Assembly: GCF_988242995.1 (NCBI RefSeq) | Contig: NZ_OZ547043.1 | Reading direction: 5' to 3' (one strand) | DNA length: 64,000 nucleotides | Shown here: piece by piece, positions 595-48,260 of the stretch | Layout of the letters: each line of letters starts with the position of its first letter | Numbering within the stretch: position 1 is the stretch's first letter | Translations under genes and position numbers: made by a program | Notes under the pieces: model-generated | Told to the model about the DNA's origin: nothing | Database searches by the model: none | The model's input: the letters and a program-made list of their open reading frames with translations, nothing else

Positions 595-1584
595 TTACTT
601 ACCGCCTAAACCTTTTTTCTCCAGTTCTTCTTTAAAGTTGTCACGCGTGATCAGTACCACGTCGGTAACTTCGGTAAATTTTGGCGGTTCAACGTCTTTT
701 GCTACCCAGTTGTAAAGCATTTCGCTGGATTTATAGCCATGTACGTCCGGGCTTGGCAGCAGGGAACCGTAGAAGCCGGTTGCCTGTGCTTTAGACAGTT
801 CGCTCACCGCATCCACACCGTTAATGCCAATGCCGATGATATCGGCCGCTTTAAAGCCCTGACCTTCCGTCGCGCGTACGCCGCCCAGCACGGTGCTGTC
901 GTTCATACCGACGATCAGCCAATGTTTAACTTCCGGATGTTGAACCAGCATTGAGTTGGCAGCGTCAAATGCCCCCGGGATGTCGTTAGATTTGGTAGGT
1001 ACCTGATAAATTTGTTTTTCCGGGAATCCGGCCGCTTTCAGCGCATCCATAGATCCCGTAGTACGGCGGCGGGCGGTATCCAGTTCGTTGGCGGTAATCG
1101 CCATCACCGCGCTTTCTTTGACATCCCAGCCACGTTTCTGCATCTCTTTATACAGTTCCTGGCCCTGACGTTCGCCAATTTTAGTCGCCGCCATCATCAC
1201 CAGCGGAACGGTATCCATTGGCTTACCTTTGGCGTTAACAAACTGGTCATCCACGGCAATGACTTTCATATCGTAGCCACGCGCTTTCGCGACGATGGCA
1301 GAGCCGAGTTTGGGGTCCGGAGTACAAATAACGAAACCTTTTGCGCCACTGGCAGCCAGGCTGTCGATCGCGTTCAATGTTTTTTCGCCATCCGGCACGG
1401 CAATCTTAATAACCTCAAACCCTAAATCCTTCCCGGCTTTATCGGCAAACTTCCATTCGGTCTGGAACCACGGCTCTTCCGGTTGCTTCACCAGAAAACC
1501 GAGCTTCAGGTTCTCCGCCATAGCGGATTGTGACATAACGGCTGCCAGACCAATGGCTGCCAGGGCTTTAGTAAATTTGTGCAT
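595..1584 (-). CDS. araF: L-arabinose-binding periplasmic protein
   Basis: ORF track 595..1635; start moved to the internal Met (MHKFTKALAAIGLAAVMSQSAMA signal peptide) matching the known AraF N-terminus. Confidence 0.9.
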   Translation of the reverse strand: MHKFTKALAAIGLAAVMSQSAMAENLKLGFLVKQPEEPWFQTEWKFADKAGKDLGFEVIKIAVPDGEKTLNAIDSLAASGAKGFVICTPDPKLGSAIVAKARGYDMKVIAVDDQFVNAKGKPMDTVPLVMMAATKIGERQGQELYKEMQKRGWDVKESAVMAITANELDTARRRTTGSMDALKAAGFPEKQIYQVPTKSNDIPGAFDAANSMLVQHPEVKHWLIVGMNDSTVLGGVRATEGQGFKAADIIGIGINGVDAVSELSKAQATGFYGSLLPSPDVHGYKSSEMLYNWVAKDVEPPKFTEVTDVVLITRDNFKEELEKKGLGGK

Positions 1585-2380
1585 GGTTCTCTCCAGCTTT
1601 AGTGTCGTTTTGTGTAGGGCAAAAACGAATGACATTCGTTAAATTAATCGGAAAACAAAGCATTACCTTTTAACTAAAAGATAAGTGACCGTGTTGACAT
1701 AGTTTTAGCGAGAAATTAATTCTCCATAGGAGAGCAATATCACATCGCAGAATTACAGTGAGAACGTGCATAAATTTAGCGGGAAAAGACATAAGGGAAA
1801 GCCAATTTGTCAGACAAATTGTCGAATGCACAGCAGATTAATCCATAAGATTAGCCTGGAAATCCTTGTTGTCTTTGGTACCCATGCGGGATGTCTTCTT
1901 TTTAACCAGTCAATAGGCCGCATTACCTGGCGTTGAGTTTTTGAAATGGTGTAATAACCGCAACTCAAAGATGTGGAAAATGTACGTCATTCATTTCGCC
2001 ATTAATTATCACTGTGCTCATTAATTAACAGAACACGTATAATGAGAGCCATCTCGCAAAAATGAAAAAACGTTTTATAAAATCATCACTTCATCATGAA
2101 TTCAAATTCATTGATTAATATCAACAAGATACAAAAAGCGCTATCATTAAAATTCATTGCAGTTACATTGATTTCATCAATGAAATGTAAAAATATATAA
2201 ACTTGATGATTTAAGCATTTTCTTATACCCGTTCAGACGTTATTCTTATTTCAGATCATCGTCAGAATTGACTCCACGATCACATTTCGGACCGGCAGAA
2301 AGGAATTATTCTGCAAACAGTAATTATGGTGTTTTGATTTATCTTGCACCTCTCCACTTCTGGATATAAGGATATTAGGT

Positions 2381-2884
2381 ATGGCAACCGCTGGAATGCT
2401 TCTCAAACTCAACTCTCAAATGAACCGCGAGTTTTACGCATCCAATCTCTACCTTCACCTGAGTAACTGGTGTTCTGAACAGAGTCTGAACGGCACCGCC
2501 ACTTTCCTTCGCGCCCAGGCACAGAGTAATGTGACCCAAATGATGCGCATGTTTAACTTTATGAAGAGTGTCGGCGCTACCCCCATCGTTAAAGCCATTG
2601 ATGTTCCCGGTGAAAAACTGAACTCTCTGGAAGAACTGTTCCAAAAAACGATGGAAGAATACGAGCAACGTTCTAGTACGTTGGCACAGTTAGCCGATGA
2701 AGCGAAAGAACTGAATGATGATTCAACCGTCAATTTCCTGCGCGATCTGGAAAAAGAACAGCAGCATGATGGTCTGTTGCTGCAAACCATTCTTGATGAA
2801 GTGCGCAGTGCGAAACTTGCGGGTATGTGCCCTGTGCAGACCGACCAACATGTTCTGAATGTCGTGTCACACCAGCTGCATTGA
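2381..2884 (+). CDS. ftnB: ferritin-like protein FtnB
   Basis: 167-aa ORF with ferritin-like fold; recognised sequence and position between araF and yecJ. Confidence 0.85.
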
Positions 2885-2962
2885 TCATCATCGGCGCTAA
2901 TGCATTGCGCCGATGAAGGTTTTGAGAAACCGCTGCCTCATCTGTTTGAAGCAGCGGTTTTT

Positions 2963-3214
2963 TTAATGGGATTCACCCTGTGGGGTAAACTTGAGTTCAA
3001 TAAGCGCGATGGCTTTTTGGATTGCCCGCATGGTGACCGGGTCTGCGGCGGCGGGATGTTTAGTAAAGTCGATATTCTTCAGCTGACTGGACATTTTTTC
3101 ACGAACTTCAACGGGCGCGATTACATCGAGAACATCCAGAATTTGTTTGATAACCAACTGGCAAGCAACCACATCAGAAACCAGTTCCTGATCGGCATTC
3201 AGCGGCTGGGACAT
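2963..3214 (-). CDS. yecJ: DUF2766 protein YecJ
   Basis: 83-aa ORF recognised as YecJ; conserved neighbourhood. Confidence 0.8.
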
Positions 3215-3300
3215 CGTAAACTCCTGATAGCATTTTGAAAGCCGTTATAGTAGCGGCTTCACATCTTCAGCGATAGTCACATCCACCGTCATCAGGACAC

Positions 3301-3328
3301 AAAAAAACCTGCCGGAGCAGGTTTTTTA
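3301..3328. terminator. bidirectional rho-independent terminator (A-run, stem acctgc/gcaggt, T-run)
   Basis: aaaaaaacctgccggagcaggtttttt read directly; flanked by the 3' ends of yecJ (upstream side) and azuC. Confidence 0.5.
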
Positions 3329-3415
3329 TTATCGGAACATATTGCCTGGCGGTACGTCTTTGAACGTCTTGCAATAGTTATTGAACATACTTTTCAGGAT
3401 TTTGCGCAGTTTCAT
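3329..3415 (-). CDS. azuC: 28-aa small protein AzuC (within the AzuCR/IsrB dual-function RNA)
   Basis: Hand translation of the reverse strand: ATG complement at 3413-3415, MKLRKILKSMFNNYCKTFKDVPPGNMFR, stop complement at 3329-3331; not in the ORF track because it is under 60 aa. Confidence 0.75.
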   Translation of the reverse strand: MKLRKILKSMFNNYCKTFKDVPPGNMFR

Positions 3416-3677
3416 CGCGGCACTCCGACCATTTGTTATACAGGTGTTATTGTCTTTGCGCTTATAATATGACAACCATCACAAAAATCAATCTTTATGT
3501 GATACAAATCACATAAATACTCCTTTAATGTTATAAAAATGATAATCAAAAAACAGCCCCCCTATTTCTGACACCTACAGATGGCAAGAAATAGCGCCTG
3601 CCAGGCGTCTTTTCCGGCCATTGTCGCAGCGCTGTAACGCGTAAAATAGTGCTTTCTCTTACTCTTCTGGCTGGACC

Positions 3678-4001
3678 ATGAGACTTCTGATTCTGACTCT
3701 TTCATTAATAACGCTGGCGGGGTGTACGGTTACTCGCCAGGCCCATGTGAGCGAAGTTGACGCGGCAACAGGTATTGTACGGTTGGTTTATGACCAGGCT
3801 TTTTTGCAGCATGCCCATACCGATCGTTATGTCAGTCGCGGGATCGCCGATCGCGCATGCCAGCAGGAAGGCTATACCCACGCGGTCCCCTTTGGTCAGC
3901 CAGTAGGCAACTGTAGCCTTTTTGCGGGTTCCTTATGTTTGAATACGGAATTCACTTTGTCATATCAGTGCCATCATTCCGCCTTCCCTGTCTTTCTCTA
4001 A
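3678..4001 (+). CDS. yecR: lipoprotein YecR
   Basis: 107-aa ORF with lipobox (LAGC) signal peptide; recognised YecR sequence. Confidence 0.8.
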   Translation: MRLLILTLSLITLAGCTVTRQAHVSEVDAATGIVRLVYDQAFLQHAHTDRYVSRGIADRACQQEGYTHAVPFGQPVGNCSLFAGSLCLNTEFTLSYQCHHSAFPVFL

Positions 4002-4171
4002 ATATTTTAATCAGCGAGGGGATCTTCGCTGATTAAAGAAATAGCGGTAATGCGTTTTATTCCCATTCGTATTTTTAATAATTGAAGTTTATATTTTACC
4101 TTTTGCAAATAATAAAATAACAAATTATAGTGACGCCACAGCAACAAATATAACCTTTGTGGAGCACTATC

Positions 4172-4669
4172 ATGCTGAAACCAGAAATGATTGAAAAACT
4201 TAATGAGCAGATGAACCTGGAACTGTACTCTTCACTGCTTTATCAGCAAATGAGCGCCTGGTGCAGCTATCATACCTTCGAAGGTGCTGCCGCGTTCCTG
4301 CGCCGTCACGCCCAGGAAGAGATGACGCATATGCAGCGTCTGTTTGATTACCTGACTGATACCGGCAATTTACCGCGTATTAATACCGTTGAATCTCCGT
4401 TTGCTGAATATTCCTCACTTGATGAATTATTCCAGGAAACCTATAAACACGAACAATTAATCACCCAGAAAATTAACGAACTGGCTCATGCTGCAATGAC
4501 CAATCAGGACTACCCAACATTTAATTTCCTGCAATGGTATGTTTCTGAGCAGCATGAAGAAGAGAAACTGTTCAAATCGATTATTGATAAATTAAGCCTG
4601 GCAGGCAAAAGCGGCGAAGGTCTGTATTTTATCGACAAAGAACTCTCTACCCTCGACACACAAAACTAA
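4172..4669 (+). CDS. ftnA: ferritin FtnA
   Basis: ORF track 4157..4669; start moved to [13 protein letters not shown] matching the known 165-aa ferritin. Confidence 0.9.
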
Positions 4670-4677
4670 TGCTCTCC

Positions 4678-4703
4678 GGCGGCAGGTTTACTGCCGCCGT
4701 TTC
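4678..4703. terminator. hairpin between convergent ftnA and yecH (cggcggcag/ctgccgccg)
   Basis: Perfect 9-bp inverted repeat read directly; sits between the two convergent stop codons. Confidence 0.5.
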
Positions 4704-4706
4704 AAA

Positions 4707-4946
4707 TCAGTGACGGCAAATCTTACTCTGATCGGTCGAAAAACCGTCTTTCGAAGGTATAAATTTGCCTTTTGCTGCCAGAAACGCTACCAGCTCTCCC
4801 GCTGTCATCCCTTCTGCCGAGCAGGTGTGAAAACGTGCCTGTTCACCAAAACGCGCTTTAATCGCAGCTTCCAGACTGGCATGCGTATATTGCTCGCCTG
4901 ATTCAATCATCATATTTAACACTTCATGACCGTGAATAGAGTCCAT
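4707..4946 (-). CDS. yecH: uncharacterised protein YecH
   Basis: 79-aa ORF, recognised sequence, conserved position. Confidence 0.8.
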   Translation of the reverse strand: MDSIHGHEVLNMMIESGEQYTHASLEAAIKARFGEQARFHTCSAEGMTAGELVAFLAAKGKFIPSKDGFSTDQSKICRH

Positions 4947-5136
4947 CGTCCCTCCTCAAAAAAAGCCTAGCGTAGCGATTGCCGCTTATGAAGACTTTGC
5001 GCCAGCGCAGGACTGAATGCTTTTTATTGTACATTTATATTTACACCATATGTAACGTCGGTTTGACGAAGCAGCCGTTATGCCTTAACCTGCGCCGCAG
5101 ATATCACTCATAAAGATCGTCAGGACAGAAGAAAGC

Positions 5137-6348
5137 GTGAAAAACAGAACCCTGGGAAGTGTTTTTATCGTGGCGGGAACCACAATTGGCGCAGGCATGC
5201 TGGCAATGCCGCTGGCTGCGGCCGGTGTTGGTTTTAGCGTTACGTTAATCTTGTTGATTGGGCTTTGGGCGTTGATGTGCTACACGGCGCTATTACTGCT
5301 GGAGGTGTACCAGCATGTTCCGGCAGATACCGGTCTAGGCACGCTGGCAAAACGCTATCTGGGACGCTACGGTCAATGGCTGACGGGCTTCAGTATGATG
5401 TTCTTAATGTATGCTCTGACTGCGGCATACATCAGCGGTGCCGGTGAATTGTTGGCCTCCAGCATCAGCGACTGGACAGGTATTTCAATGTCGGCAACCG
5501 CTGGCGTGCTGTTGTTCACTTTTGTTGCCGGTGGCGTGGTTTGTGTTGGAACATCGCTGGTCGATTTATTTAACCGTTTTCTGTTCAGCGCCAAAATTAT
5601 TTTTCTGGTGGTGATGCTGGTATTGCTACTACCGCATATTCACAAAGTGAATCTTTTAACCCTGCCGTTGCAACAGGGGCTGGCTCTGTCAGCAATCCCG
5701 GTGATTTTTACCTCATTTGGTTTTCACGGTAGCGTGCCGAGTATTGTCAGCTATATGGATGGCAACGTTCGTAAGCTACGCTGGGTGTTTATAACCGGTA
5801 GTGCGATCCCCCTGGTGGCATATATTTTCTGGCAGGTGGCAACGCTTGGCAGCATTGATTCAACAACCTTTATGGGATTGCTGGCTAATCATGCTGGATT
5901 AAACGGGCTGTTACAGGCGTTACGCGAAATGGTGGCCTCTCCGCATGTTGAGCTGGCAGTGCATTTATTTGCTGATTTAGCCCTCGCCACGTCATTTCTC
6001 GGCGTTGCGTTAGGCTTATTTGATTATCTGGCTGATTTATTTCAGCGTTCAAATACCGTTGGTGGACGGTTGCAAACTGGTGCAATTACCTTTCTGCCGC
6101 CGTTGGCGTTTGCACTGTTTTATCCACGAGGATTTGTGATGGCGCTGGGTTACGCCGGTGTGGCGCTGGCGGTACTGGCATTGATTATCCCTTCGCTGTT
6201 GACCTGGCAAAGCAGAAAGCACAATCCTCAGGCGGGTTACCGGGTGAAAGGTGGTCGTCCGGCGCTGGTGGTGGTGTTTCTCTGTGGTATTGCTGTGATT
6301 GGCGTGCAATTTTTGATTGCGGCAGGGTTGTTACCAGAAGTGGGGTGA
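5137..6348 (+). CDS. tyrP: tyrosine-specific permease (GTG start)
   Basis: 403-aa multi-pass membrane ORF recognised as TyrP; GTG at 5137. Confidence 0.9.
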
Positions 6349-39457: not shown

Positions 39458-39636
39458 CATCACCTTATCCGCAATTTTTTTCGCTGACAAGAAAATATTC
39501 GCCATATGAATGATTAACGCTACTTATGAATAGAAATGTGACGCACGTCACCCCTTGGTGGCTCTGGCGTCAGCGGGATCGCTCCCGAAAAAATCATCTT
39601 TGATAATTTGTGCTGTTTTGAGAATCATCCTGGTAA

Positions 39637-47329: not shown

Positions 47330-47713
47330 TTATTCATAGCGTCTGCTACGTGCGGGACGAGGTCGGGTGTACCAGGCAATGCTGCCTAACAATGCCCCGA
47401 CCAGAGCCATAAATAAAAATCCGACCAGTGCCCCTAACCACTTTCCCGCGGTAGAGCCTAAATCGCTTTCAAATCCCGACACGGGGGCATCGGGGATCCG
47501 GCTCATCACCCAGATGTAACGCGCCATTGCCCAGACGAAATAGCCACACCATGTATAGAAAGCCCACAAAGCCAGTTTGCCGCCAGGGCTGCGAGAGAGT
47601 CTCTCTTCCATCTTTGTCGAACCGTATTCCATTTTGAGATAACCCGGAAAATTCAGACTTAGTACTATTATGTGATAAAAGTCACATTTTTCCACATTGG
47701 ATGAGCCAGTCAA
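47330..47713 (-). CDS. yedR: inner-membrane protein YedR (start codon uncertain)
   Basis: 127-aa ORF containing the recognised YedR sequence ...MEERLSRSPGGKLALWAFYTWCGYFVWAMARY... Confidence 0.7.
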   Translation of the reverse strand: MTGSSNVEKCDFYHIIVLSLNFPGYLKMEYGSTKMEERLSRSPGGKLALWAFYTWCGYFVWAMARYIWVMSRIPDAPVSGFESDLGSTAGKWLGALVGFLFMALVGALLGSIAWYTRPRPARSRRYE

Positions 47714-47949: not shown

Positions 47950-48260
47950 ATACCTTCATTAATGTGCGCGTGATCACACCAAGTGTTTAGCGCAACAATC
48001 ATTGATACTCCCTATCTTTCCGCTTAACTCATAACATATTGATATACATTTATAATTTTCATGAATATTTATATTTGGAATTCATAATTCTGAATTATAT
48101 TAAATAGATTAGAAACATTTTGAAATCTTTTAAATACATTTGTTACATGTAATCCTTAAAATAAAATGAACTTCATAGAATAGTATCCAAATGTGCTTTT
48201 TTTTGGATAACGGCACTTATTGATATATTCATGAAGATTATAATCACAAGGGAATACATA

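Follow-up and report, generated by a model that had tools for sequence, protein, structure and literature searches.

The stretch between positions 3294 and 3457 of the window (the whole 64,000-nt stretch of DNA analysed here, from contig NZ_OZ547043.1 of assembly GCF_988242995.1) corresponds, with a probability of about 95%, to the azuCR gene of Escherichia coli itself, and not to a relative or a variant of it: its minus strand encodes the 28-aa small protein AzuC within the RNA known as AzuCR (IsrB). Both azuC and AzuCR are already known, as they are annotated in RefSeq and their mechanism was characterised in 2022, and there is nothing new here for the biology of E. coli. The locus serves as a positive control, in which a 28-aa gene hidden by a 60-aa cut-off for open reading frames (ORFs) was recovered and correctly named from the raw sequence. 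Beyond known biology, the addition made here is modest and consists of a survey of azuC in 80 species.

The azuC gene and its genomic setting

The azuC coding sequence is located on the minus strand at 3329-3415 (ATG at 3415-3413, TAA at 3331-3329) and comprises 28 codons plus the stop codon; it is defined by its translation, its identity to K-12, an NCBIfam match and its pN/pS ratio. Re-translation of this interval yields MKLRKILKSMFNNYCKTFKDVPPGNMFR*, which is uninterrupted, with no frameshifts and no internal stops. The peptide is identical to that of K-12 (b4663) at 28 of 28 residues. NCBIfam assigns it to NF033642, the equivalog "stress response protein AzuC": the match covers positions 1-26 of the 26 in the profile, and its score of 75.9 bits (E = 1.3e-21) lies above the cut-off, which is 30. 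Pfam has no model for AzuC. The sequence-only reading had proposed a minus-strand ORF for AzuC at precisely 3329-3415, inside the AzuCR (IsrB) dual-function RNA, and had named beforehand a frameshift or stop within that interval, or the lack of a match to AzuC, as the findings that would speak against it. Neither was found, the RefSeq gene azuR (b4434) of K-12 lies at the same place, and the dual function is published (PMC8915982), so that the proposal is borne out in all these respects. Its remark that the ORF track had missed the gene is also fair, since 28 aa fall below the 60-aa cut-off of that track.

When ORFs are listed from a minimum of 20 aa, the azuC frame appears as a 48-aa ORF that starts at a TTG at 3475. 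This start was rejected, because it precedes the published transcription start site (TSS; 3457) and, in consequence, the 28-aa ORF initiated at ATG is the real one. AzuC has a net charge of +6, and its residues 1-20 show a helical hydrophobic moment of 0.53, a value reached by 1.65% of shuffles. Moment and charge are both consistent with the amphipathic, membrane-associated helix published for AzuC; I6 and L7, the residues of the published localisation mutant, are present in the peptide of the window.

Positions 956-5956 of the window are collinear with positions 1985500-1990500 of K-12 MG1655 (99.42% identity, 29 mismatches, 0 gaps) and, given this gap-free collinearity, K-12 coordinates are converted into window coordinates by subtracting 1984544. 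The gene order around azuC is araF / ftnB / yecJ / azuC / yecR / ftnA / yecH / tyrP, of which the segment ftnB-yecJ-azuC-yecR-ftnA is arranged as in K-12; in both, azuC sits between yecJ and yecR, on the strand of yecJ. The RefSeq annotation of K-12 includes two features at this position: (i) the coding sequence azuC (b4663), at the equivalent of 3329-3415; and (ii) the non-coding RNA azuR (b4434), at 1987843-1988001, whose 159 nt correspond to 3299-3457 of the window. Of 5426 complete E. coli genomes, 5418 contain a 311-bp region around the ORF, and all the matches listed, the weakest of an evenly spread sample included, carry an azuC annotation. Many E. coli chromosomes are 100% identical over these 311 bases, and PGAP calls azuC in a strain that is 100% identical here.

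Compared with the AzuCR of K-12 (Raina et al. 2022, PNAS, PMC8915982), the locus of the window has an identical peptide and the same position between yecJ and yecR, as well as the same promoter hexamers, CRP-type sites, TSS context, Shine-Dalgarno sequence, FnrS site, cadA-pairing segment and terminator; it differs only at 3328 and, upstream, at 3521. The azuC coding sequence shows no nucleotide differences from K-12, and the transcript is identical at 163 of 164 bases. The sole mismatch, at 3328, affects the first base past the azuC stop codon (TAAC in K-12, TAAT in the window) and generates a tandem TAA-TAA. The upstream regulatory region contains a single SNP, at 3521, which falls inside the equivalent of the NarP site; with that exception, both SNPs are outside all defined functional elements. 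Since the transcript differs from that of K-12 by one base outside the ORF, an absence of expression or activity would be surprising.

Expression signals, terminator and target pairing

The AzuCR transcript (also called AzuR, IsrB or IS092) was placed at 3294-3457 on the minus strand by mapping the published TSS through the collinearity with K-12: transcription starts at K-12 position 1988001 (3457 in the window) and the RNA is 164 nt long, its 3' end being thus near 3294 (PMC8915982). A promoter scan identifies a sigma-70 promoter at 3464-3491 (minus strand), with a -35 hexamer TTGATT (3491-3486), a 16-nt spacer and a -10 hexamer TATTAT (3469-3464), and the published TSS is 7 nt downstream of the latter. 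A pattern search detects two CRP-type sites at this promoter: (i) a palindrome TGTGA-N6-TCACA without mismatches at 3498-3513, upstream of the -35 hexamer; and (ii) a second site with one mismatch at 3468-3483, which overlaps the promoter spacer and the -10 hexamer and whose position would be consistent with repression via promoter occlusion. CRP represses AzuCR transcription in K-12 (PMC8915982), and the presence of two putative sites at the promoter fits that repression. Sites for FNR, PhoP and NarP have been reported at isrB in K-12, at 1988039-1988076 (PMC12266141, 2025), that is, 3495-3532 in the window. After conversion of the published coordinates, the FNR site (3495-3514) and the PhoP site (3502-3519) both overlap the CRP palindrome, and the equivalent of the NarP repressor site (K-12 1988060-1988076) occupies 3516-3532 and includes the SNP at 3521.

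Within the 5' untranslated region, a Shine-Dalgarno sequence GGAG can be read at 3423-3426 (minus strand), 7 nt upstream of the ATG. Farther upstream, at 3440-3446 (minus strand, transcript nt 12-18), lies the target site CACCUGU of the sRNA FnrS. The cadA, galE, glpD and fnrS genes of this strain are outside the window, and the K-12 copies were used in all duplex calculations. The 5' end of FnrS, GCAGGUG, is calculated to pair with nt 12-18 of AzuCR, which is the published position: in K-12, FnrS pairs 25-31 nt upstream of azuC, as proven by compensatory mutations, and represses the translation of AzuC (PMC8915982).

The intrinsic terminator of AzuCR (3301-3327, minus strand) begins 1 nt past the azuC stop codon and folds into an 11-bp stem (3327-3317 with 3312-3302) with a UCCG loop and a U7 tail. 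The hairpin has a folding energy of -19.4 kcal/mol (z = -6.9 versus dinucleotide shuffles); the claim that the ORF ends at a terminator stands. A consensus terminator scan did not report it, though direct folding shows the hairpin; this miss is probably due to the A/U pairs which extend the stem and absorb the T-run. The terminator had also been described as bidirectional, a description that holds in its structural part: an A-run borders one flank and a T-run the opposite one, so that a hairpin with a U-tail can form on either strand, and the plus-strand hairpin folds at -13.5 kcal/mol with a U6AUUAU tail. But no plus-strand gene ends near 3300; the upstream region of that strand is antisense to yecJ, and ftnB, the closest gene on it, stops at 2884, with hairpins of its own at around 2885-2965. 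Bidirectional termination is thus a structural possibility that is functionally unsupported.

No global structure is evident in AzuCR beyond the terminator, the transcript as a whole not being unusually stable (z = -1.49). A search of 2800-4200 against Rfam returned no family at its gathering score, and the AzuCR RNA is therefore without a matching model. Sub-threshold matches coincide with the terminator hairpin on both strands, namely STnc370 (34.6 and 27.5 bits, gathering score 54) and rsmX (23.9 bits, gathering score 56); identity with either was rejected, as these scores are sub-threshold and reflect a generic resemblance among terminators.

The segment predicted by windowed RNAduplex to pair with cadA covers 3344-3373 on the minus strand (transcript nt 85-114, azuC codons 15-24), across which the window allele equals that of K-12. 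Its duplex with positions -15 to +16 of K-12 cadA has an energy of -29.3 kcal/mol, better than all 20 shuffles (-21.1 +/- 2.1, best -25.7). The location of this in-silico duplex agrees with that of the published pairing region, which is found within the azuC ORF and, on the cadA side, close to the ribosome binding site (PMC8915982). In the case of K-12 galE, the best windowed duplex of this crude search (-25.1 kcal/mol) is within the range of the shuffles (-24.2 +/- 2.4), and it is the published compensatory mutations on which galE as a target rests (PMC8915982).

Initially reported under the names IS092 and IsrB as a candidate non-coding RNA, AzuCR is now recognised as a dual-function RNA that is translated to AzuC and also pairs with cadA and galE (PMC8915982). 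Regarding the protein, its synthesis in K-12 was demonstrated by SPA-tag detection and ribosome binding; AzuC fractionates with the membrane, GlpD co-purifies with it and glycerol-3-phosphate dehydrogenase activity rises, probably through the promotion of GlpD association with the membrane (PMC8915982). Regarding the riboregulator, cadA and galE both undergo repression through direct pairing with AzuCR, the galE site lying inside that gene (PMC8915982). In addition, repression is better with an azuC stop-codon mutant, and fragments of the targets reduce the synthesis of AzuC, from which it follows that translation and pairing compete (PMC8915982).

Since all the sequence elements are present in the window and identical to those of K-12 except for the two SNPs, we infer that these activities operate in this strain too. 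The sigma-70 promoter, with its two flanking or overlapping CRP-type sites, would drive a minus-strand RNA of about 164 nt, from 3457 to approximately 3294, which would end at the intrinsic terminator (3327-3301). As an mRNA, it would be translated from the arrangement GGAG-N7-AUG into the basic, 28-aa AzuC, able to form an amphipathic helix. As the riboregulator AzuR, it would use a segment inside the ORF to pair with the translation-initiation region of cadA and with a site inside galE, thereby repressing both; and because the pairing segment is within the ORF, translation and pairing would compete. The promoter would be repressed by CRP, FNR, NarP and PhoP, and the anaerobic sRNA FnrS would add its own repression from 25-31 nt upstream of the AUG. 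This scheme draws on the K-12 literature where it concerns the translation of AzuC and its binding to GlpD, the repression of both cadA and galE and the way in which the two roles compete, all of which would carry over to the present strain. In any case, nothing in the sequence of the window contradicts the azuCR explanation.

Conservation in the Enterobacteriaceae and alternative readings

The survey of azuC took one genome per species and was anchored on the neighbouring YecJ protein, which provided 80 loci with a YecJ identity of 82-99%; azuC was then sought in the DNA of these loci by local tblastn. An intact AzuC-like ORF of 27-28 aa is found at the same position and on the same strand in 60 of these 80 Enterobacteriaceae species, which belong to at least 12 genera: Escherichia, Citrobacter (amalonaticus/sedlakii group), Enterobacter, Lelliottia, Leclercia, Kosakonia, Pseudescherichia, Silvania, Huaxiibacter, Pseudenterobacter, Pseudocitrobacter and Superficieibacter. 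The 27-aa form ends in ...PPGAMF. Among the surveyed species, yecJ is present and azuC absent in Salmonella enterica subsp. arizonae and diarizonae, C. koseri, the C. freundii complex and Buttiauxella.

Conservation extends to the signals that surround the ORF. Both the -35 and the -10 hexamers are kept across genera, as are the half-sites of the two putative CRP-type sites. Over 61 loci, mean column conservation is 0.83 in the promoter/CRP block and 0.78 in the 5' untranslated region, versus about 0.5 in both flanks, and reaches 0.89 at the FnrS site, 0.996 at the Shine-Dalgarno sequence and 0.97 at the terminator.

These data bear on three other readings of the locus. That AzuCR might be a purely non-coding sRNA, with a fortuitous ORF of 28 codons, is in principle conceivable because short ORFs easily arise by chance in RNAs of 160 nt, and its first description as a non-coding candidate points in the same direction. 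Nevertheless, among 56 distinct alleles from at least 12 genera, the variable columns at codon positions 1, 2 and 3 number 10, 11 and 26, respectively, out of 27 each, and pN/pS, when pooled, amounts to 0.16 in the azuC frame as opposed to 3.2 and 0.9 in the remaining ones, which clearly marks the peptide as being under purifying selection. Moreover, none of the 60 alleles has a disrupted ORF, the Shine-Dalgarno sequence is conserved, a curated NCBIfam equivalog exists and both the SPA-tagged protein and ribosome binding are published (PMC8915982). The coding signature and the published detection of the protein refute a chance ORF, whose probability is practically nil. Alternatively, azuC could be a leader peptide or upstream ORF of yecJ, with the hairpin at 3327-3301 acting as an attenuator of read-through into that gene. 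This would suit the constant arrangement of both genes, azuC being on the same strand and upstream of yecJ in 60 of the 60 azuC-bearing species, whatever stands further upstream, at a distance of roughly 65-120 nt in 59 of them and about 265 nt in one. Against it, the U7-tailed hairpin is a strong terminator, 97% conserved; AzuCR has been seen as a discrete species of 164 nt (PMC8915982); and the 20 species without azuC have kept yecJ, at 82-95% identity. A -10-like hexamer, TACTAT, is located some 33 nt before the yecJ ATG (3252-3247 in the window) and is also present in the 14 azuC-less loci inspected (14/14), which points to an independent, putative promoter of yecJ. With a strong terminator, a discrete RNA and a putative promoter of its own for yecJ, a leader or attenuator role was rejected as the main explanation and is considered very improbable.

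The remaining alternative accepts AzuC and questions the weight of AzuR: the locus would be essentially a small-protein gene, in which selection maintains AzuC and its regulation, and pairing by AzuR would be marginal or a recent overlay confined to Escherichia. Apart from the coding signature in at least 12 genera, two results of the survey go in this direction. On the one hand, synonymous and third positions are not better conserved in the cadA-pairing segment than in the rest of the ORF (0.71 versus 0.80). On the other hand, when E. coli cadA serves as the proxy target, the mean pairing energy is -27.7 kcal/mol for the 6 Escherichia alleles and -21.6 kcal/mol for the 55 alleles from other genera, the latter value being equal to the shuffled background. 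Besides, most riboregulator phenotypes of AzuCR were obtained by overexpression (PMC8915982). However, compensatory mutations prove that AzuCR pairs directly with cadA and galE in K-12, a chromosomal deletion of azuCR raises the expression of cadA-gfp (PMC8915982), and window and K-12 do not differ within the pairing segment; furthermore, E. coli cadA stood in for the cadA of other genera, whose own targets may have co-varied with their azuC. Taken together, a reduction of the locus to its small protein appears unlikely, and the dual-function azuCR gene is the reading retained here.

AzuCR among dual-function RNAs and its possible origin

Several short bacterial RNAs combine coding and regulatory functions. 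The SgrS/SgrT RNA of E. coli is, like AzuCR, a single short transcript that provides a small protein and a pairing regulator of carbon metabolism (PMC8915982). But while the coding and pairing regions of SgrS/SgrT are separate and both act on one pathway (PtsG), AzuCR has its pairing segment inside the ORF, its two roles compete and they have different targets (PMC8915982); there is no sequence relationship between them. Spot 42, also named as a CRP-repressed sRNA (PMC8915982), is a short RNA of E. coli which encodes the 15-aa protein SpfP, whose partner is CRP (PMC8916003). Similarly, VcdRP of Vibrio cholerae is a short RNA encoding the 29-aa protein VcdP, whose partner is citrate synthase (PMC8672173). 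SpfP and VcdP modulate a regulator or an enzyme of central metabolism, and both RNAs are tied to carbon metabolism (PMC8916003, PMC8672173); their sequences, protein partners and layouts are unrelated to those of AzuCR, of which they are functional analogues only.

With regard to the origin of AzuCR, we tentatively suggest, at somewhat less than even odds, that AzuC is an old small protein of the Enterobacteriaceae and that AzuR acquired its riboregulator role later, in Escherichia. The age of the protein is suggested by the occurrence in at least 12 genera of the 27-aa form upstream of yecJ, together with a putative CRP-controlled promoter, an FnrS site and a terminator. In favour of a late riboregulator is the fact that, outside Escherichia, the pairing segment varies freely at synonymous sites and its predicted pairing with E. 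coli cadA is at background level. Pairing with cadA looks specific to Escherichia, AzuC being far more widespread, which may be taken as a lead, given that E. coli cadA was used as a proxy. Many of the genera that carry azuC are classically lysine-decarboxylase negative, as is the case of the Enterobacter cloacae complex, Citrobacter and Leclercia adecarboxylata; Salmonella is lysine-decarboxylase positive and is not known to carry azuC.

A pairing with cadA restricted to Escherichia bears on how dual-function RNAs originate, that is, on which of the two, protein or riboregulator, preceded the other. If the proposed order of events is true, AzuCR would constitute a dated case in which an mRNA was recruited to serve as a base-pairing sRNA.

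Single-nucleotide differences at the azuCR locus and CRP-type palindromes

The AzuCR transcript of the window differs from that of E. coli K-12 MG1655 at only one position (3328), the first base past the azuC stop codon, which precedes the terminator stem by 1 nt. At this position, the minus strand has a T instead of the C found in K-12, which turns TAACAA into the tandem stop TAATAA. The upstream regulatory region also shows a single SNP with respect to K-12, at window position 3521. This SNP lies within window 3516-3532, corresponding to K-12 1988060-1988076, i.e., the reported NarP site of isrB. On the plus strand, the window reads TACTCCT and K-12 reads TACCCCT; both would be compatible with the NarL/NarP heptamer TACYYMT.

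Apart from the two CRP-type palindromes (TGTGA-N6-TCACA) of the azuC promoter, the window contains a perfect one, TGTGATAAAAGTCACA (47671-47686), and two others with one mismatch each (47963-47978 and 39537-39552). In total, five such palindromes were found vs. 2.0 expected, and five or more were present in 6 of 100 shuffles.

Hairpins and a probable promoter element flanking yecJ

The genes ftnB (plus strand) and yecJ (minus strand) are convergent and separated by 78 nt; two hairpins (window 2885-2965) are found in this gap: (i) CATCGGCGC...GCGCCGATG; and (ii) AAACCGCTGC...GCAGCGGTTTTTTT, which has both an A-run and a T-run. The sequence-only reading had described the azuC hairpin as a bidirectional terminator; the second ftnB-yecJ hairpin seems a stronger candidate than that one for genuinely bidirectional termination. 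Rfam matches within window 3269-3382 were all below threshold: STnc370, a Salmonella sRNA family, scored 34.6 and 27.5 bits on the two strands (gathering threshold 54), and rsmX scored 23.9 bits. These signals come from the azuC terminator AAAAAACCUGC...GCAGGUUUUUU and do not support assignment to either family.

The product of yecJ is a DUF2766 protein, 82-99% conserved over 80 species. Approximately 33 nt upstream of its ATG, on the minus strand, there is a TACTAT hexamer (window 3247-3252), which the window shares with each of the 14 azuC-less loci inspected and which is likely to be an independent -10 element of yecJ.

Variation, distribution and loss of azuC

Outside Escherichia, AzuC has 27 amino acids and a C-terminus of the form ...PPG(A/G)MF, with the exception of one 28-aa allele of C. 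amalonaticus. The start codon is also variable: some Enterobacter and Lelliottia alleles (species loci L023, L036-L038, L043, L047 and L048) have GTG in place of ATG, while in Pseudocitrobacter (L082 and L083) codons 1-2 read CAA CGx, with no start, and the first ATG is codon 3, which gives a 25-aa product.

Among 5426 complete E. coli genomes, the azuC region was missing from eight. Some genomes carry two copies, and 2 of the 5424 places are on plasmid records; one genome (NZ_CP024862.1), which has two places, matches the azuC-region query over only 85% of it. Among the species loci, no azuC-like ORF was found upstream of yecJ in Salmonella enterica subsp. arizonae and diarizonae, Citrobacter koseri, the C. 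freundii complex or Buttiauxella, and the distribution of azuC in Citrobacter is patchy. These yecJ-positive loci are L014, L017, L028, L030, L039, L045, L049, L051, L053-L058, L070, L075, L080, L081 and L086; in them, yecJ is adjoined by other genes.

Escherichia sp. MOD1-EC7003 (L007 2700-2972) lacks both yecR and azuC, and the distance from the end of ftnA to yecJ is approximately 270 nt. Similarity to the window restarts there precisely at the azuC terminator, of which a remnant is retained. The locus appears to be a natural deletion of yecR-azuC.
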